Sequence record: NZ_CP024444.1
Direction: 5' to 3' (one strand)
Length of the DNA: 64,000 nucleotides
Source: a plasmid
Made by a program: the position numbers and the translations under genes. The first letter of the stretch is position 1; each line of letters begins with the position of its first letter. Below the pieces are notes generated by a model. That model was not told the origin of the DNA, made no database searches, and saw nothing but the letters and a program-made list of their open reading frames with translations. This document shows, piece after piece, positions 2,454 to 64,000 of this stretch.

Positions 2454-3748
2454 TGGCCATGCGTCCTATTGTATTCATCAATTTCAGCTGGGGTCATGAC
2501 ATGAAGAGCTGGTTTAGAACTATTGGTGTAAGTGCTAACCGTTACGCCAGTATTGCCCGGCACCACTGCAACGGCAGCATTCCCTGGAACCACTGTCGTT
2601 GTTGTTGTGCTTACAACAGCATTGGTAGCATTGGTAGCATTGGTGGTAGTTGCCGCAGTATTACTGATACTAACAGGTCGCTGCTCAATAGTGTATTTGG
2701 TTTCCAAAGGATTTGGTGTTGTTACAATACCAGTGTTATTCAACCAAGGTTGTGCGCCATTTGCTTTTAAGTCATTATTGCGTACATTTTGCATATACTT
2801 CATTAGTGCTGGCGAAAAGGTTTCCTCGATTGGGGTTTGTGATACCACGCCTGATTTCCCATCATTTTTTAACGTCACAGCACCCAAGCCAACATATTTA
2901 GAATTGTTGTATCTAGGCTTAAACGGTTGCGTGATGAATGATGGTAACACTTCGATTTGCAATAACTGTTCATCAATTCTTAAGCGATCACCGTCATTAT
3001 TGTCATACAGATTATAGCTGTTAATAACAGGCGAGTTAATTTTGCCGTCTAACACAAACTCATGGAAACGTATCATCCCAATATAGTCACGGTTAAGGCG
3101 ATCCATAGCCTGTTGTAAAATACCATTAGCTTGAGCCAATCCTAAACGCCAACCCTCTTTGGTTGCATCCTCCCATAATTTACGCTCATGACTTGTTTTT
3201 GGATAAATCTCTTTGCTCACGAATGCATAATCAGGAAATGCATTAGACTCATAGCTAAAGTTTAAGTAATCACGCCAGTTTGGTGCTGTGGTGGAAAAAC
3301 GTGCCTGTTTAACAATATTATAAATTGCGCGTGAAAGGCGAATTTGCATGTGATTGTCTTGGTTATACAGATTGCGTGCTTCAGTGATAACAGGAGGGAC
3401 GACACGCTGTTGTATCATTAAGGGTTGGAAATTATATATGGCATCTAAATTTCGAGAGTTTGTTTGTACTGCCCATTGTATTTGTTTAAAACGCATGCTC
3501 ATGGCTGCACGAATAGCAGTCATTTTTGCATATTCCATCATGGCTTTATCACGCTCGGTACTTGCCATATCAATCATGGCATTTGTTGCACCGCCACGGA
3601 CTAACTGTTTTTGATAGCTTAAAAAATCTTCTGCATTAGTGATGTTTTCAGGGCTACCAGCGGCATGACTAGCCGCTGACAAACTTGTCAAAATCACACC
3701 AAATAATGCAGCTACTCTTTTGGATGAATTACCCATGGTTTGCCTCAT
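2450..3748 (-). CDS. secreted T4SS-associated protein (possibly DotC/TraI-like), Thr/Asn-rich C-terminus
   Basis: 432 aa with an N-terminal signal peptide and a low-complexity C-terminus (TTTNATNATNAVVSTTTTTVVPGN). Its position between the lipoprotein and the ATPase mirrors dotD-dotC-dotB / traH-traI-traJ order. Confidence 0.3.
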   Translation of the reverse strand: MRQTMGNSSKRVAALFGVILTSLSAASHAAGSPENITNAEDFLSYQKQLVRGGATNAMIDMASTERDKAMMEYAKMTAIRAAMSMRFKQIQWAVQTNSRNLDAIYNFQPLMIQQRVVPPVITEARNLYNQDNHMQIRLSRAIYNIVKQARFSTTAPNWRDYLNFSYESNAFPDYAFVSKEIYPKTSHERKLWEDATKEGWRLGLAQANGILQQAMDRLNRDYIGMIRFHEFVLDGKINSPVINSYNLYDNNDGDRLRIDEQLLQIEVLPSFITQPFKPRYNNSKYVGLGAVTLKNDGKSGVVSQTPIEETFSPALMKYMQNVRNNDLKANGAQPWLNNTGIVTTPNPLETKYTIEQRPVSISNTAATTTNATNATNAVVSTTTTTVVPGNAAVAVVPGNTGVTVSTYTNSSKPALHVMTPAEIDEYNRTHGQ

Positions 3749-5479: not shown

Positions 5480-8137
5480 TTAATAGGAACTTTTCAACTC
5501 ATTTGCTAAAAATGATGCAGTGCGACTATCAAGGTTCTGTGCTACCTGTTTTGGTGTTCCTGCCACAACAATATTCCCACCAGCATTTCCAGCACCTGGT
5601 CCCACATCAATCACCCAATCTGCTTGTGCAACGGCACGCATATCATGCTCAATCATAACCACGGTATTACCCGCATCGACTAATCGCTGCAATTGAACTA
5701 ACAATCGATCTACATCTGATGGATGCAAACCTGTAGTTGGCTCATCAAGTATATACAGTGTATTTCCACGCTGATTGCGTTGCAGCTCGGTCGCCAATTT
5801 AATACGTTGCGCTTCTCCACCAGATAGTTCAGTCGCTGGTTGCCCTAAACGTAAATAACCAAGACCAATTTCCTTTAATAATTGTAGTGAACGAGCAATC
5901 GAGACCTCTCCATCAAAAAAATCACGTGCTTCATTGACGGTCATTTCTAATACTTCAGCAATATTACGTCCATTCCAGCGAATTTTCAGAGTGTCATCAT
6001 TATATCGAGCACCATGACATGTCGGACAAGGGGCATATACACTTGGCATAAACAATAATTCTACACTGACAAAGCCTTCACCTTCACAAGTTTCACATCG
6101 CCCTTTAGCCACATTAAATGAAAAACGTCCAGCATCATAATGAGCTTGGAGAGCTTCAGGAGTCCCAGCAAATAACTTTCTAACATGATCAAATAAACCC
6201 GTATAAGTTGCCAGATTAGAACGTGGAGTACGGCCAATTGGTTTTTGATCAACCTGTACCAGACGCTTTATAGCCTCCACATCACCAGCTAGAGAACCTC
6301 GTGTAACCTCGGTAACCAACATTCCTTCATTTAAAGGATTATCTTCATTATTGTTTTCAGTTTCAGATTCATTGCCTAAATATGAAAGTACTAACTCAGG
6401 TAAAGCTTGAGAAACGAGACTAGATTTACCTGAACCTGAAATACCTGTAACTGCTGTAAGTACACCAAGAGGTATACGAGCATCAATATTATGCAGGTTA
6501 TGTCGGTAAATATTGTTAAGTTCAAGCCAACCAGAGGGTGTACGTCCATAACTTTGAGTAACTGGGATTTTATTAAATAAATAACTTGCAGTACGTGAAG
6601 CTGAAATCTCACTTAAACCCTGAGGTACCCCACTATATAAAATATTACCACCTTGCTCTCCTGCATCTGGTCCAACATCCACTAACCATTGAGCACGACG
6701 CATGAGCTCTAAATCATGCTCTACAACAAATACGGAGTTCCCAGCATCTCTTAATTTATCGAGGGAATCATATAATGACTGACTATCTGAAGGATGTAAT
6801 CCAGCAGACGGCTCATCCAGTACGTAAACTACACCAAATAGCATAGAACTTAATTGTGTTGCTAAACGCAAACGTTGTAACTCTCCAGCTGAAAGAGTCG
6901 GTGTGGCTCTATCTAATGTTAGATAACCAAGGCCTAACTGGCGTAATTGATTTAAACGCCCTACCACACCACTTGCTAAACGCTGGGCAGCAATTTTCTT
7001 TTCATCTGAAAGTGCTGAAGTACGTCTTACATCTGGAGATACAGAATGCACTGCTCTACCTGTTGTTGCTCGTTCAGATCTATCAAGTTGGGTTACTTTA
7101 TTATTAGTCTTTTCGCCAGCATCATGAGCGTCGAAATCGCCAAGAACAATGGGTTCAAGCAGGCAAGTTAATTTATCCAAAGAAAGTTGCATAAACTCAC
7201 CAATATCTACTCCTGCAAAGGTAATAGATAAGGCTTCTGGCTTAAGTCGTTTACCATGGCAGGAAGGGCATATTTTTCCTTCCATAAAACGTGAAACACG
7301 TTTTTTCATCAACGTACTTTGGGTATTAGCAAAAGTATGAAGGACATAGCGACGAGCACCAGTGAAAGTGCCCATATAGCTGGGTTCTAGTTTACGTTTA
7401 AGTGCAGATTGAGTCTCAGCGGGGCTTAAACCAGCATAGACAGGAACTGTTGGGGTTTCTTCAGTAAATAAAATCCAATCTCGATCCGATTGCGGTAAAT
7501 CTTTCCATGGTCGATCAACATCATACCCTAGGGTTACTAGGATATCGCGTAAGTTTTGCCCGTGCCAAGCAGGTGGCCATGATGCGATAGCTCTCTCACG
7601 AATACTGAGTGTCGGGTCAGGAACCATTGTCGATTCTGTAACTTCATAAATGTGACCTAAACCATGACAGGTAGGACAAGCACCTTGAGGAGTGTTCGGC
7701 GAAAAGTCCTCGGCATATAACATTGGCTGATCGGCAGGATATGCACCAGCACGCGAATAAATCATTCGAACGAGACTTGATAAAGTTGTTACACTTCCAA
7801 CAGAAGAACGGGTATTACTTGCACCACGTTGTTGTTGCAATGCGACTGCTGGTGGTAGACCATCAATAGCATCAACATCTGGTACTCCTGCCTGATCAAT
7901 TAAGCGTCTTGCATAAGGTGCAACAGATTCGAAATATCTTCTTTGTGCTTCAGCAAAAATAGTCCCAAAAGCAAGTGATGATTTTCCCGAACCCGATACA
8001 CCTGAGAAAACAACAAGTGCATTTCTTGGGATAGAAACATCTACATCCTTAAGGTTATGTTCACGCGCACCTCGAACTTCAATACAATTATTAGATAAAG
8101 TAATGTTATTGGGTTCACCAAAAGAATGTGTTTTCAT
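5480..8137 (-). CDS. uvrA: UvrA-like ABC ATPase (class II UvrA paralog, shorter than canonical UvrA)
   Basis: 885 aa with an N-terminus (EVRGAREHNLKDVDVSIPRNALVVFSGVSGSGKSSLAF) nearly colinear with UvrA. It has two ABC modules with Walker A motifs and CxxC zinc-finger pairs. The stop codon is supplied at the IS982 right inverted repeat. Confidence 0.8.
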   Translation of the reverse strand: MKTHSFGEPNNITLSNNCIEVRGAREHNLKDVDVSIPRNALVVFSGVSGSGKSSLAFGTIFAEAQRRYFESVAPYARRLIDQAGVPDVDAIDGLPPAVALQQQRGASNTRSSVGSVTTLSSLVRMIYSRAGAYPADQPMLYAEDFSPNTPQGACPTCHGLGHIYEVTESTMVPDPTLSIRERAIASWPPAWHGQNLRDILVTLGYDVDRPWKDLPQSDRDWILFTEETPTVPVYAGLSPAETQSALKRKLEPSYMGTFTGARRYVLHTFANTQSTLMKKRVSRFMEGKICPSCHGKRLKPEALSITFAGVDIGEFMQLSLDKLTCLLEPIVLGDFDAHDAGEKTNNKVTQLDRSERATTGRAVHSVSPDVRRTSALSDEKKIAAQRLASGVVGRLNQLRQLGLGYLTLDRATPTLSAGELQRLRLATQLSSMLFGVVYVLDEPSAGLHPSDSQSLYDSLDKLRDAGNSVFVVEHDLELMRRAQWLVDVGPDAGEQGGNILYSGVPQGLSEISASRTASYLFNKIPVTQSYGRTPSGWLELNNIYRHNLHNIDARIPLGVLTAVTGISGSGKSSLVSQALPELVLSYLGNESETENNNEDNPLNEGMLVTEVTRGSLAGDVEAIKRLVQVDQKPIGRTPRSNLATYTGLFDHVRKLFAGTPEALQAHYDAGRFSFNVAKGRCETCEGEGFVSVELLFMPSVYAPCPTCHGARYNDDTLKIRWNGRNIAEVLEMTVNEARDFFDGEVSIARSLQLLKEIGLGYLRLGQPATELSGGEAQRIKLATELQRNQRGNTLYILDEPTTGLHPSDVDRLLVQLQRLVDAGNTVVMIEHDMRAVAQADWVIDVGPGAGNAGGNIVVAGTPKQVAQNLDSRTASFLANELKSSY

Positions 8138-8219
8138 GTTTCTACCCTCTATCGCTTAAAAAGTCGTAAGCTAATAATTATTAAAATATTTTCTATTAAT
8201 TCCTAAAATTAAAGTTAGC

Positions 8220-9512
8220 TTAATTCTTAGGAATAGATTTACTAATATCTTCTTTTCTTACATTTGTGATAAGTCTTGAACCACGATAACCCACACTATG
8301 ATTCCACAACCAACTTAAGGCAACGTTTAAACGACTTTGCACACCAATCAAAAAGTAAATATGTATAAGTTTCCAAAACCACCAAGCGAGTACTCCTTGT
8401 AGTTGAAATTTACCCATATCAACAACTGCGCGACTACGTCCAATTGTTGCTAGATTACCTTGATGATGATATTTAAATGGCTCTTTTATATCTTTGCCTT
8501 TTAATCGATTATCAATGGTTTTCGCAACATATTTTCCTTGTTGTTTGGCGGCTGGTGCTATACCTGGTACTAACTTACCATCTTCCATAGTAACTGCCGC
8601 GGTATCACCAATGACGAAAATTTCAGGATGCCCTGTCACAGTTAGATTTGAATCAACCAACACACGCCCTGCACGATCAGATTCAACATTTAACCAACGA
8701 GCTGCTGGAGATGCTTGTACGCCAGCAGCCCAAATAATTGTTTTTGCAGGTAGCTGTTTTCCATCATAAACAACACCATCTTCTGAACAACTTGTCACTG
8801 GTGTTCCAAGTACAACCTCAACACCAAGTTGTTCAAGTGCCTGACGGGTATAGCTAGACAACTTTTCAGGGAAAACTGATAATAAACGTGGACCGGCTTC
8901 AATCAATACCACTCGAGATTCACGAGGATCTATCAAACGAAAATCTCGAGATAACGTATCTTTTGCCAGTTCTGCAATAGTTCCTGATAGCTCAACTCCC
9001 GTCGGACCACCTCCAATGATCACAAATGTTTGTAAAGCCTTTCTTAAGATTGGATCTTTGGTACGTTCAGCTTCTTCAAAGGCAGCCAGAATTCGTTCTC
9101 GAATATTTGTTGCATCCCCCAAGGTTTTTAAACCTGGTGCAAATCGCTCCCATTCATCATGACCAAAATAAGCATGAGTAGCACCTGTCGCAATAACTAA
9201 AGTGTCATAATGCAACTTTTCGCCATCATCAAGAACAACTAGTCGGCTACCCACTTCAATGCCCTGCACCTCTCCCATTAAGGTACGGACTTCAGGACGG
9301 TTTCGAAAAATATATCGAATAGGCCAAGCGATTTCAGATGTTGATAAAGATGAGCCTGCGACTTGATACAATAATGGTTGAAATAGATGGTGATTTCTTC
9401 TGTCGATAATAGTTATATCGACATTGACACCAGCGAGACTATTTGCAGCCTCTATCCCTCCAAAACCAGCTCCAATAATAACAACACGATGACGTCCTGT
9501 AGACTTTACCAT
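8220..9512 (-). CDS. ndh: type II NADH:quinone oxidoreductase (NDH-2)
   Basis: 430 aa with an N-terminal FAD Rossmann motif (VVIIGAGFGGIEAA), a second dinucleotide motif (VIIGGGPTGVE) and a C-terminal membrane anchor. Confidence 0.85.
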   Translation of the reverse strand: MVKSTGRHRVVIIGAGFGGIEAANSLAGVNVDITIIDRRNHHLFQPLLYQVAGSSLSTSEIAWPIRYIFRNRPEVRTLMGEVQGIEVGSRLVVLDDGEKLHYDTLVIATGATHAYFGHDEWERFAPGLKTLGDATNIRERILAAFEEAERTKDPILRKALQTFVIIGGGPTGVELSGTIAELAKDTLSRDFRLIDPRESRVVLIEAGPRLLSVFPEKLSSYTRQALEQLGVEVVLGTPVTSCSEDGVVYDGKQLPAKTIIWAAGVQASPAARWLNVESDRAGRVLVDSNLTVTGHPEIFVIGDTAAVTMEDGKLVPGIAPAAKQQGKYVAKTIDNRLKGKDIKEPFKYHHQGNLATIGRSRAVVDMGKFQLQGVLAWWFWKLIHIYFLIGVQSRLNVALSWLWNHSVGYRGSRLITNVRKEDISKSIPKN

Positions 9513-9531: not shown

Positions 9532-10362
9532 CTAGCACTTAAGAGCTAAAGCATGATGCACAATATGTGCACGAATAAAGCTCGCAATGAAGTAATAACT
9601 ATGGTCGTAACCTTCTCTTAGGTTTAAAACTAAAGGGTGATCCATTTCAGTACATACTTTTCGTAGTCTTTCTGGTTGAAGTTGGCTATCAAGAAATTCA
9701 TCCCCTAAGCCTTGATCAACTAATAATGGAATTTTATGAATTGAATTCTTAACTAATTCAACAGTATCGTATTGTTTCCATGATTCCTGATCAGCTCCTA
9801 AATAAGCATTGAAAGCTTTTTGTCCCCAAGGAACTATGGATGGATTAACAATAGGCGAAAAAGCTGATACGCTCAGATATAATTCGGGATTACGTAAGGC
9901 AATCGTTAATGCCCCATGTCCTCCCATTGAATGACCACTAATACCGCGTTTTTGTGACGCAGGGAAATGAGCCTCAATTAGCGCTGGAAGTTCATGCACA
10001 ATATAATCATACATTTGAAAATGTGCAGCCCAAGGATCTTGAGTGGCATTCAGATAAAATCCAGCACCTTGACCGAGATCATATGCAGGATCGTCAGCTA
10101 CATTTTCTCCACGAGGGCTAGTATCTGGTGCAACAATAATAATTCCATGTTCAGCCGCATATTGTTGCGCTGCAGACTTCGTAATAAAATTTTGTTCTGT
10201 GCAGGTAAGACCACTGAGCCAGTACAGTACTGGTAATTTATCTTGATGCACCTGAGGAGGCAGATAAATAGCAAATTTCATCATGCATCCGAGTACTTCA
10301 GATTTATGTTGATAAACGTCTTGCCAACCACCAAACATTGCATGATGTTCAACACGATCCAT
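9532..10362 (-). CDS. fghA: S-formylglutathione hydrolase (esterase D family)
   Basis: 276 aa with the GHSMGGHGAL serine-hydrolase motif and esterase D/FrmB architecture. It lies next to frmA/gfa. Confidence 0.85.
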   Translation of the reverse strand: MDRVEHHAMFGGWQDVYQHKSEVLGCMMKFAIYLPPQVHQDKLPVLYWLSGLTCTEQNFITKSAAQQYAAEHGIIIVAPDTSPRGENVADDPAYDLGQGAGFYLNATQDPWAAHFQMYDYIVHELPALIEAHFPASQKRGISGHSMGGHGALTIALRNPELYLSVSAFSPIVNPSIVPWGQKAFNAYLGADQESWKQYDTVELVKNSIHKIPLLVDQGLGDEFLDSQLQPERLRKVCTEMDHPLVLNLREGYDHSYYFIASFIRAHIVHHALALKC

Positions 10363-22710: not shown

Positions 22711-22906
22711 ATTAAATAGAAAAAATAAAGAAACTCTAAAATATTGGTAAAATTAAAAACCTAAACCTAGTCTTTCATCTTTATTACCAAAACAACCCAC
22801 ATCTAATTATTATCCAAACCCCATATATCACGTCATGCAATCGCTAAAATTTGGTTTGGTCTAATGGCTAATGTGATTAATTTATAGAGGCTTTTTTAAA
22901 TTTATT

Positions 22907-23550
22907 TACGCTCAAATCGGTTTTTATACGTTATTTGCCATTTTCTTACGCTCAAATCGGTTTTTATACGTTATTTGCCATTTTCTTACGCTCAAATCGG
23001 TTTTTATACGTTATTTGCCATTTTCTTACGCTCAAACCCATTTTTATACGTTATTTGCCGTTTTCTTACGCTCAAACCCATTTTTATACGTTATTTGCCG
23101 TTTTCTTACGCTCAAACCCATTTTTATACGTTATTTACCATTTTCTTACGCTCAAACCCATTTTTATACGTTATTTACCATTTTCTTACGCTCAAACCCA
23201 TTTTTATACGTTATTTGCCATTTTCTTACGCTCAAACCCATTTTTATACGTTATTTACCATTTTCTTACGCTCAAACCCATTTTTATACGTTATTTGCCA
23301 TTTTCTTACGCTCAAACCCATTTTTATACGTTATTTACCATTTTCTTACGCTCAAACCCATTTTTATACGTTATTTGCCATTTTCTTACGCTCAAACCCA
23401 TTTTTATACGTTATTTGCCGTTTTCTTACGCTCAAACCCATTTTTATACGTTATTTGCCATTTTCTTACGCTCAAATCGGTTTTTATACGTTATTTACCG
23501 TTTTCTTACGCTCAAACCCATTTTTATACGTTATTTGCCGTTTTCTTACG
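22907..23550. repeat. tandem array of about 16 copies of a 40-bp repeat (TTACGCTCAAAYCSRTTTTTATACGTTATTTRCCRTTTTC)
   Basis: Direct reading shows perfect head-to-tail 40-bp periodicity with a few variant positions (ATCGG/ACCCA, GCCA/GCCG/ACCA) and no intervening unique sequence. The three long ORFs in the track here are artefacts of translating the repeat. Confidence 0.9.
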
Positions 23551-61999: not shown

Positions 62000-63340
62000 C
62001 AAGGTGTCATCTTGCCAGCTTCACATTGATTGAAGCAATCGCAGATTAATTAGATATAATGGCTTGCACTATATCAATACGTTTTCCGATCTAAATTTCT
62101 TCTTTAACTAACATATATTCTCTTGACTCCCCCCCCCCCTTGCTAAAGCAAGGGGATTCCTTCCACAAGACGGTCAAGCCCGACCGCAAGAATGTTTTTA
62201 CTGGCATTGATATCTCTATCATGCCATGTGCCACACGAAGCACAAGTCCATTCCCTTATTCCAAGCGATTTTCTACCTTTCGGACTATTGTCGGTGATTT
62301 CACCACAACACGAACATCGCTGGGTCGTGTATCGTTCATTCACGATTTCAAAACGGCAACCTGCGTTCTCGCATTTGTAGGCCAGTTGTTGTTTCATTTC
62401 AAACCAACCTGCATCGTAAACCGATTTGGCTAGTTTGCCTTTTTTACTGTTAAATTGATTGGTTTTAACGTCACCAACTACAATTAGGGCATTGTCTTTA
62501 ACTAGTCGTGTGGTGAATTTGTGAATTAGGTCTTGCCGTGTATGTTTGATTTTGGCATGGATTGCCTTGACACGCTGTTTGTTTTTGGCACGTTGGGCGG
62601 TAGCTAACGCTTTGGCATATTTAAGCGTTTGCTTGATTTGTAGCTTGTCACCGTTTGAGGTGGTGGCACTTTCCTTTAAGCCTAAGTCTATGCCAACACT
62701 ACCAGTACCACATGATTGTTTGGGATAGTCTTTGACGGTGACACAGGCATACCAACGATTACGGCTGTCTTGCACGACCTCAAGGGTGTTGATTTGGTAA
62801 AGCGATAGGTTGTAGCTGTCCCATAGGTCGATGATTAGCTTTTGTCCTTTGGCTAGGCTTAGTTGTAGTGTTGATTTTAAGCCCTTTTTACCAGTTTGGT
62901 GCGTGGCAATATGCTTAATGGCAGATTGTTTAAATGGTAGCCAACCCAAGCTTTTACGCTTAGAGTTTGGGTTGTTGGTTCGCCATGATAACTTAGCTTT
63001 TTTGAATTGCTTACGGCTTTTGGCGTGGGTTTCGTTGATGGCTTGGATGGTCTGACTGTGTAAGCCAAGTAGTTCACCGCTACCTTTGGTGTAGTCGTTT
63101 AGGTCATAAGCACTAAAGAACTTGCCAGTTTTTTGTAGGTGTCTGTAACTCAAATCATTGACATAATTCCACACGAAATTGACTGAACCGCTTAGGCGGT
63201 TTAATTGGTCTGCGTGTTTATCTCGTATGCGTAACTTGAGTGTTTTCATGGGTTTATTTTAACACATTTAGCAAAATTTTGTGCGTAAGCATGGTTACGG
63301 AGTTGCCTTATATCCACCGCCTGAAGTCGGTGGTTTTACG
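62000..63340 (-). mobile_element. IS200/IS605-family element of the tnpB-only (IS1341-like) type; ends approximate
   Basis: The 5' side of tnpB has the hairpin CCACCGcctgaagtCGGTGG at about 63308-63327 (LE-like). The 3' end overlaps a strong hairpin CCCCTTGCtaaaGCAAGGGG at about 62140-62160 and is followed by about 140 bp of non-coding sequence (RE/omega-RNA region). Confidence 0.5.
62143..63249 (-). CDS. tnpB: TnpB (IS605 OrfB family RNA-guided endonuclease)
   Basis: 368 aa with a RuvC-like split domain and a C-terminal zinc finger (CSCCG...CASCG), typical of OrfB/TnpB. Confidence 0.8.
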   Translation of the reverse strand: MKTLKLRIRDKHADQLNRLSGSVNFVWNYVNDLSYRHLQKTGKFFSAYDLNDYTKGSGELLGLHSQTIQAINETHAKSRKQFKKAKLSWRTNNPNSKRKSLGWLPFKQSAIKHIATHQTGKKGLKSTLQLSLAKGQKLIIDLWDSYNLSLYQINTLEVVQDSRNRWYACVTVKDYPKQSCGTGSVGIDLGLKESATTSNGDKLQIKQTLKYAKALATAQRAKNKQRVKAIHAKIKHTRQDLIHKFTTRLVKDNALIVVGDVKTNQFNSKKGKLAKSVYDAGWFEMKQQLAYKCENAGCRFEIVNERYTTQRCSCCGEITDNSPKGRKSLGIREWTCASCGTWHDRDINASKNILAVGLDRLVEGIPLL

Positions 63341-63378
63341 ACAACGGAGGATAAAAATTTATATACAGCTGGTCGATC

Positions 63379-63610
63379 CAAAAACTTGCGTTAACGCAAA
63401 CTTTTTACTCGCATCCAAAATTTGGCCACACTCAAAAAAACTTGCGTTAACGCAAACTTTTCAAACACAGCTGGTCGATCCAAAAACTTGCGTTAACGCA
63501 AACTTTTTACTTCTACACCCAAAACTTGGCTACATCAAAAAACTTGCGTTAACGCAAACTTTTCAAACACAGCTGGTCGATCCAAAAACTTGCGTTAACG
63601 CAAACTTTGT
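63379..63610. promoter_or_regulatory. cluster of five copies of the 14-bp perfect palindrome TTGCGTTAACGCAA (candidate operators or centromere-like site)
   Basis: Copies sit at about 63384, 63443, 63487, 63541 and 63590. Three are preceded by CAGCTGGTCGATCC, and they alternate with CCAAAAYTTGGCYACA, giving roughly 103-bp periodicity. The cluster lies 170 bp upstream of a KorA-like HTH gene. Confidence 0.6.
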
Positions 63611-63775
63611 AAATTGGTCATAGAGTAGGAAATAATTAATGACTGTTTAATAAAAAAGGAGTTAGATAAGTCTGAGCCTACTATTAAACGTTTAAATAAT
63701 ATTAAAAAAAGATTGTTAATTCTTTTCAAGTAAGATATTATTACCTTGCATGCAATAAGTCTTAAGGCGGTAATA

Positions 63776-64000
63776 ATGGTTAAAACCAATGAAATAAAGG
63801 GTACGGTTACCGAACAACAATTTGAGTCGGCGATTAGCAAAACCAAGATAAAGCAAAAAGGTAAGGATATTGCTTACAAAGTTTTGGTGCTGGGTTCAGA
63901 TATTAATGAAGTTGCCGCATCAAACAACATGAGTTACCAAAGGGTAAAAAAAATTTGTGAGCGCGTTCATAGCGAAGTAGGTAATGACAAAATGATGGAA
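63776..64000 (+). CDS. KorA/TrfB-like HTH transcriptional repressor (5' part; runs off the window)
   Basis: MVKTNEIKGTVTEQQFESAISKTKIKQKGKDIAYKVLVLGSDINEVAASNNMSYQRVKKICERVHSEV has no stop before 64000. The pattern TExQFxxAI...IAxxVLVxG...EVA...QxVxK...RV resembles IncP KorA. Confidence 0.45.
   Translation, partial: MVKTNEIKGTVTEQQFESAISKTKIKQKGKDIAYKVLVLGSDINEVAASNNMSYQRVKKICERVHSEVGNDKMME

Follow-up and report, generated by a model that had tools for sequence, protein, structure and literature searches.

The right-hand end of the 64,000-nucleotide stretch of plasmid DNA analysed here (the window) carries a cluster of short palindromes upstream of a gene for a small KorA-like protein, which raises the question of which protein binds the palindromes and what the cluster does for the plasmid. 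The last 751 bases of the window were 99.7% identical to the end of the Moraxella osloensis plasmid pMOXF1 (CP040258.1, 248,441 bp, circular), with 2 substitutions in this stretch and indels further upstream, and the end of the window coincides with the end of the CP040258.1 record, of which the window is either a very near relative or a different version. The korA-like gene is cut by the window end (63776–64000, plus strand, the first 75 of 106 codons) and was completed across the record origin with CP040258.1, from which the C-terminal 31 amino acids were taken. A literature search found no description of these site sequences or of the pMOXF1 partition locus.

Anatomy of the palindrome array

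Five exact copies of the perfect 14-bp palindrome TTGCGTTAACGCAA were found, as the preliminary description of the locus had reported, starting at positions 63386, 63442, 63488, 63544 and 63590, and a count this high never arose in 100 dinucleotide shuffles (mean 0.49 matches). With up to two mismatches allowed, no further copy was present in the 64-kb window or anywhere else across the 248-kb plasmid, and the 14-mer had no match in ~0.9 Mb of unrelated ParB loci used as a negative control. These control loci were generic chromosomal ParBs (Bacteroidota and similar) from a ParB-alignment scan of genome contigs, which found no close relatives, the pattern NIQREDL being too common. Since the site is confined to a single cluster in the entire plasmid, we read the palindrome as a local cis element and not as the operator of a regulon. 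The conserved box around each palindrome exceeds 14 bp, extending over ~26 nt as AAAAACTTGCGTTAACGCAAACTTT(T/G). In a 16-bp frame, CTTGCGTTAACGCAAA, the proposed ParB/KorB-type sites, whose half-sites recur in relatives, lie at 63385–63400 (14-bp core 63386–63399), 63441–63456, 63487–63502, 63543–63558 and 63589–63604, all five having the same sequence. The centre-to-centre spacing alternates (56, 46, 56 and 46 bp), giving a compound period of 102 bp rather than the 103 bp first described, and TRF returned the same period with 2.4 copies and 94% matches. This compound repeat array (63365–63608), unique in the plasmid, is a candidate centromere or ParB loading region. A gap of 109 bp separates its last site from the −35 hexamer of the predicted operon promoter, so that the five palindromes lie 110–330 bp upstream of that hexamer, and the distance from the array to the start of the korA-parA-parB operon downstream is 173 bp.

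The two other short repeats said to alternate with the palindromes are also present, CAGCTGGTCGATCC in three copies (63366, 63468 and 63570) and CCAAAAYTTGGCYACA in two (63415 and 63519), and a search of the plasmid gave no copy of either outside the array. An open reading frame of 127 codons that crosses the repeats (63240–63623) was rejected as a gene, being a mechanical product of the translated repeats. A phage collection searched for the locus yielded no match.

The feature had been taken to start at 63341, a position that still belongs to the left end of an IS200/IS605 element (63250–63356, minus strand, with a hairpin at 63316–63335); the array proper begins at 63365. Similarity of the element to other Moraxella plasmids stops at ~63355, so the left end borders on the array without belonging to it, and the array was rejected as an IS component on these grounds. 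The element carries only tnpB (62143–63249) and, as a whole (62143–63356), is separated by 8 nt from the array's first repeat, its position being taken up by a thermonuclease gene in two relatives described below, L010 and L104. Truncation of the array by the IS is without support, as no array remnant was found elsewhere in the plasmid.

The preliminary description had further proposed that one regulator family controls both the korA locus and a 47-gene array in the same window, an idea that we consider unsupported by the sequences of the two kinds of site. The module site of the 47-gene array (CGGTTAAACCG, also given as ACGGTTAAACCGT) is a 13-bp odd palindrome, ACGGTT-A-AACCGT, which differs from the 14-mer in its arms and in the spacing of its half-sites. 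The module site was absent from 63250–64000, including the korA promoter, and from all contigs of relatives with a close KorA homologue (9–18 kb of each covered), and the 14-mer was absent from the modules of the 47-gene array. Between 24400 and 61800 of the window, the minus strand holds ~28 near-identical promoter modules that read, on the coding strand, ACGGTTAAACCG-C-TTGAYT-ATACACGGTTAAACCG-TTATTAT and continue into a conserved leader, CATGGAAACGAGATAGGCTC; in these modules the −35 hexamer directly adjoins one copy of the operator, and the spacer is occupied by another. A 40-bp unit, TTACGCTCAAACCCATTTTTATACGTTATTTGCCATTTTC, is repeated 16 times in tandem at 22906–23550 with 96% matches and looks iteron-like.

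The korA-parA-parB operon and its predicted promoter

In CP040258.1 the operon encodes a 106-aa KorA-like protein, followed after a 5-nt gap by a 264-aa ParA and then by a 362-aa ParB. Comparison of the complete gene product with known repressors bore out the earlier suggestion that the partial gene encodes a KorA/TrfB-type helix-turn-helix (HTH) protein. The full 106-aa sequence matched the Pfam family KORA (PF16509) at 33.7 bits against a gathering threshold of 26.7 (E 4.1e-8, model positions 2–82 of 84), its homologues P0001–P0003 likewise carry PF16509, and a profile of seven family members retrieved the structure 7BBQ, which is ArdK of R388 (PMC9723621), at E 1.8e-7 and RP4 KorA (2W7N/5CM3) at E 0.03. 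An AlphaFold2 single-sequence model of homologue P0001 reached a pLDDT of only 40, too low to be usable. Tyr84 of RK2 KorA is the residue that contacts KorB (PMC2680271), and its counterpart in the Moraxella protein was ambiguous in a by-eye alignment.

The pMOXF1 ParB contains the domains ParB_N (PF02195, E 2.9e-17), KorB (PF08535, 46.5 bits, cut-off 22.3) and HTH_ParB, and its top match in the PDB was RK2 KorB (8QA8/8QA9, E 4.7e-35), with chromosomal ParBs at ~1e-23. The motifs GHRRFRA (GxRRxRA) and NIQREDL (ENxQRxxL) are present and invariant in the alignment. The KorB_C domain (PF06613) was not detected by Pfam in this protein and is weakly present in a distant relative (P0017, encoded on L111). 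ParA, a Walker-type protein, belongs to the short class that lacks a DNA-binding domain at the N terminus, so autoregulation of the operon would have to come from the KorA-like protein, from ParB, or from both. The system is of the KorA-IncC-KorB kind, as in RK2 and RA3, with an unusual cluster of five sites upstream.

The predicted sigma-70 promoter of the operon, TTGTTA-N17-TATTAT (63713–63741, plus strand), is the sole promoter of good quality on the plus strand in the interval from the array to the korA-like gene, and its hexamers are conserved in L010 and L018/L104. On its downstream side the −10 box is separated by 4 nt from a perfect 10-bp palindrome, TTGCATGCAA (63746–63755), which covers the position where transcription should start, occurs once in the plasmid and recurs with the same sequence and position in L010–L016; the equivalent in L104/L018 is TGCGAGCA, in which the arms are kept. 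The outer arms of TTGCATGCAA, TTGC..GCAA, are those of the 14-mer minus its four central base pairs. Operators of the KorA family are inverted repeats adjoining the −10, or direct repeats at the −35, of the repressors' own promoters (PMC9723621), and the KorA of RA3 is an autorepressor of korAp only (PMC7414963). Because of these two precedents, TTGCATGCAA was assigned to the KorA-like protein as its putative autorepressor operator.

Other repeats and maintenance genes lie elsewhere in the megaplasmid. Downstream of parB and two small open reading frames, six dispersed 27-nt repeats, AAAAACGAAA-N13-AWTCGT, occupy positions 3023–3670 of CP040258.1 within a strongly A/C-rich, strand-asymmetric stretch of 700 bp; these repeats, which are not conserved in L010 or L104, are a possible second cis site. 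Further on, at 5778–6830, a 21-bp iteron, TGAAAGGTGTACAAATATTTT, is repeated at least 14 times ahead of a Rep gene (7086–8492), and these iterons likely mark an origin beside the partition operon. A ParM/StbA family gene is annotated at 197469–198548 of CP040258.1 (11469–12548 of contig L114), matching the early part of the window, and the megaplasmid may therefore carry a second, actin-type partition system. It also contains several Rep genes, which suggests a cointegrate.

Proposed binding of the palindromes and its alternatives

Homologues of the KorA-like protein are rare, forming 3 clusters among 5.8 billion proteins, and those of ParB form 16; within these clusters neither a ParB without korA nor a korA without ParB was found. 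Half-sites of the form TTTGCGY..RCGCAAA accompany the ParB clade of pMOXF1 in eight related systems. Among these are metagenomic contigs (L010–L016) with a KorA 73% and a ParB 49–53% identical to those of pMOXF1, in which three AAACTTTCGTTAACGCAAACTTT boxes lie upstream of korA, ~117 bp apart. A common M. osloensis element (L104–L107; KorA 52% and ParB 47% identical) has two perfect AAGTTTGCGTCGACGCAAACTT palindromes upstream of korA, 117 bp apart. The spacers of the arrays in pMOXF1, L010–L016 and L104–L107 are wholly different from one another, and CAGCTGGTCGATCC and CCAAAAYTTGGCYACA are absent from the relatives' arrays; not being conserved there, these accessory motifs are probably passengers of the duplication that the pMOXF1 repeats reflect. 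Contig L010 also has a unit, TTACCTTTT, repeated seven times in tandem at 9786–9847, between parB and Rep3 iterons.

The korA-parA-parB triad was also found in three Moraxella conjugative plasmids of the MOBF type, whose ParBs are 39–44% identical to that of pMOXF1 overall and 44–55% over the N-terminal and DNA-binding parts. Here the sites are dispersed, with seven TTTGCGYCGRCGCAAA 16-mers in M. ovis pMOV1 (L020), eight in the M. catarrhalis plasmid (L021) and 14 in that of M. bovoculi (L022), against an estimated chance expectation of ~0.02. Thirteen of these 29 sites are intragenic, and positions are conserved between plasmids (traW +39 to +48, dsbC +63 to +66, parA +195 to +210), several sites lying 39–66 bp inside traW, dsbC, traN and traH. 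The same half-sites are dispersed in L109 and L113 as well. The pattern in the three MOBF plasmids suggests that F-type conjugative plasmids of Moraxella have a KorB-like network extending over the whole plasmid. The M. bovoculi plasmid additionally has a perfect 26-bp palindrome, CACCCACTCAATTTATTGAGTGGGTG, in three copies (42914, 45141 and 46216), two of them 38 bp after a GGTTTTTGCGTCGGCGCAAAT site in promoter regions of small genes, where it could be a paired second operator. In L111, a distant relative with a different HTH, the site is GTTTAGCGTGCTAAAC, which we take to be close to the OB sequence of RK2.

Given these comparisons, we consider it probable (about 0.65) that the five palindromes of pMOXF1 are parS/OB-type binding sites of the plasmid's own KorB-family ParB. 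They adjoin parAB and co-occur with the ParB clade across replicons, and they were assigned to ParB because the site family tracks that clade and not the KorA recognition helix. Between L104 and the M. ovis and M. catarrhalis plasmids, the 16-mer is identical and the ParB HTH near-invariant (GKSETWVSRHLGL vs GKSDSWVSRHLGL), as is the GKIKSxEAA segment that follows it, whereas 8 of the 13 positions in the KorA recognition helix are different (MSYQRVKNICVRV vs VSEQWVLNLCNRI). The dispersed, partly intragenic and position-conserved sites of the MOBF plasmids likewise point to ParB/KorB-type sites rather than promoter operators. As korA and parB were present together in every relative found, the two candidate binders are never separated, and the assignment to ParB depends on this helix covariation and on where the sites lie. 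The central base pairs of the site (TA vs CG) vary with no obvious parallel change in the ParB HTH, which counts against binding by ParB. The specificity of RK2 KorB is reported to depend on residues outside the HTH, making HTH conservation an imperfect proxy.

The same evidence bears on the reading in which the palindromes are operators of the KorA-like repressor, forming a multi-operator autoregulatory region with ParB binding elsewhere. The array does lie directly upstream of the korA-like gene, RP4 KorA binds palindromes (PMC9723621), korA always accompanies the site family, and the three closest KorA homologues, with a near-identical recognition helix, have very similar sites. We nevertheless find this unlikely, as the sites stand well upstream of the −35 hexamer and not at the −10 or −35, the canonical position of a KorA operator is already taken by the conserved TTGCATGCAA, an identical 16-mer is kept where the KorA recognition helix is largely changed, and almost half of the sites in the MOBF plasmids are inside genes. 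The two functions first offered for the locus, a multi-operator control region or a centromere, thus fared differently, with the comparative evidence favouring a centromere or ParB site and not a set of repressor operators.

A related question is whether binding of ParB to the array would make it the centromere. ParB might bind there only for loading or silencing, as at a class II OB of RK2, with partition left to the downstream repeats or to ParM/StbA. The downstream repeats occupy the same place as the parS of RA3 and type Ia plasmids (PMC7414963), downstream of the operon and unlike the upstream array here, a ParM/StbA gene is present, and the KorB sites of RK2 serve both regulation and partition (PMC11790492). 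However, it is the upstream palindromes and not the downstream repeats that are conserved in L010 and L104, the downstream repeats are unlike any KorB-type palindrome, and a partition complex would be expected to form wherever ParB sites are clustered, so a role confined to loading and silencing seems quite unlikely. Because of the second, downstream repeat array and the ParM/StbA gene, the pMOXF1 array may still be one partition site among several, or not the principal one, and its role may be chiefly regulatory.

We regard it as very improbable that the array is a composite site at which a third factor (a host IHF-like protein, or the product of a small open reading frame after parB) acts on CAGCTGGTCGATCC and CCAAAAYTTGGCYACA, or that it is without function, as a recent tandem duplication, a set of weak terminators or IS-associated sequence. 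The accessory motifs do repeat two or three times, an IS end abuts the array, and two of the palindromes score as weak terminator-like hairpins, but the motifs are missing from the relatives' arrays, where the spacers also differ, and the palindromes are kept across elements whose ParBs are only 47–53% identical. IS homology ends at ~63355, and an Rfam search of the locus gave no family match, only miRNA-hairpin noise below threshold, to which the palindromes gave rise. The terminator interpretation was rejected in view of the 5-bp stems, the five copies and the dispersed intragenic copies in other plasmids.

If the palindromes are ParB sites, ParB dimers would nucleate on each 16-bp site, and closure of the CTP-binding N-terminal domain would then let clamps accumulate around the array, by analogy with ParB and KorB; it is from this analogy (PMC11790492) and the conserved ParB motifs that we infer CTP binding, clamp closure and sliding. 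The clamps would build the partition complex for the short Walker-type ParA, with the array serving as centromere. Because the array is situated ~110 bp upstream of the promoter, ParB loaded there may also help to silence the operon. The KorA-like protein, bound to TTGCATGCAA at −10/+1, would act as a local autorepressor and may in addition hold ParB clamps at the promoter, in the way that RK2 KorA does with KorB (PMC11790492).

Comparison with known systems and significance

The locus resembles korA-incC-korB of the IncP-1 plasmids RK2/RP4, with which it shares the gene order (a small KorA-family HTH protein, ParA and a KorB-family ParB) and whose KorB is the best solved homologue of the pMOXF1 ParB. 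Two kinds of palindrome are present at the operon promoter in both, a short one at the −10 (compare OA) and a longer one of the TTT...AAA type upstream (compare OB), and the outer arms TTGC..GCAA common to the short and long palindromes of pMOXF1 recall the OA/OB pair. The OA and OB of RK2 share TTTAG. In RK2, CTP-loaded KorB clamps held by KorA silence promoters at long range (PMC11790492), and in view of the similar gene order, KorB homology and palindrome pair, this is a plausible model, by analogy, for the pMOXF1 locus. Unlike RK2, pMOXF1 has a site of different sequence and of 14–16 bp instead of 13 bp, its korA does not overlap parA, and its ParB has no detected KorB_C domain. The five sites stand in tandem in one cluster with no dispersed copies, and no global regulon of the RK2 type is visible in pMOXF1, where both the 14-mer and TTGCATGCAA are found only at this locus. 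The KorA-like protein is also nearer to ArdK than to RP4 KorA by the E values given above (1.8e-7 vs 0.03).

[quoted passage not shown] RA3 KorB binds a 16-bp perfect palindrome, TTTCGTACGTACGAAA, which is the IR-SnaBI element and parS (PMC4175270), and the pMOXF1 site has this same format; only 4 of the 8 half-site positions agree, and the likeness is therefore taken as an analogy of format. As in RA3, the single copy of TTGCATGCAA suggests an autorepressor-only role for the KorA-like protein. RA3 differs in having one parS downstream of the operon and three OB sites elsewhere, where pMOXF1 has five sites upstream and none elsewhere. The sopC centromere of F, which comprises 12 units of 43 bp, is similarly built of tandem units, each with a single short inverted repeat to which an HTH-type ParB binds, but it lies downstream of sopAB, the operon is autoregulated by SopA and not by a KorA-like protein, and SopB is outside the KorB lineage. 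Finally, the ArdK/KorA repressors of IncW and IncN plasmids (R388 ArdK, 7BBQ/7BCA/7BCB) include the best solved sequence match of the KorA-like family and are small dimeric HTH repressors that regulate their own synthesis (PMC9723621). ArdK, in contrast, binds direct TTGACA repeats overlapping the −35, while the pMOXF1 promoter has an inverted repeat at the −10, and ArdK is not linked to parAB.

The locus reveals no new kind of system, and the feature, while real, is fairly ordinary. What it would provide is a likely centromere and an autoregulatory map for a 248-kb M. osloensis resistance megaplasmid carrying msr(E)/mph(E), together with a previously unreported ParB/KorB site family, TTTGCGYYRRCGCAAA, common to several Moraxella plasmids and of use in the annotation of partition loci and of potential determinants of incompatibility. 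We tentatively propose, as a possibility that we would not yet rate as even, a distinct Moraxella lineage of KorB-type ParBs recognising TTTGCGY-YR-RCGCAAA, which would span a range from the compact five-site array of pMOXF1, with a KorA-guarded promoter 110 bp away, to a plasmid-wide network of 7–14 sites in the MOBF plasmids, with sites 40–66 bp inside tra genes. With its five sites, 110-bp gap and KorA-type operator, pMOXF1 offers a convenient natural test bed for the model of a KorB clamp locked by KorA developed for RK2. Should ParB clamps and the KorA-like protein work together as their RK2 counterparts do, the system would be the first example of KorA/KorB-style long-range silencing outside IncP, in a natural minimal version that would be easy to dissect.
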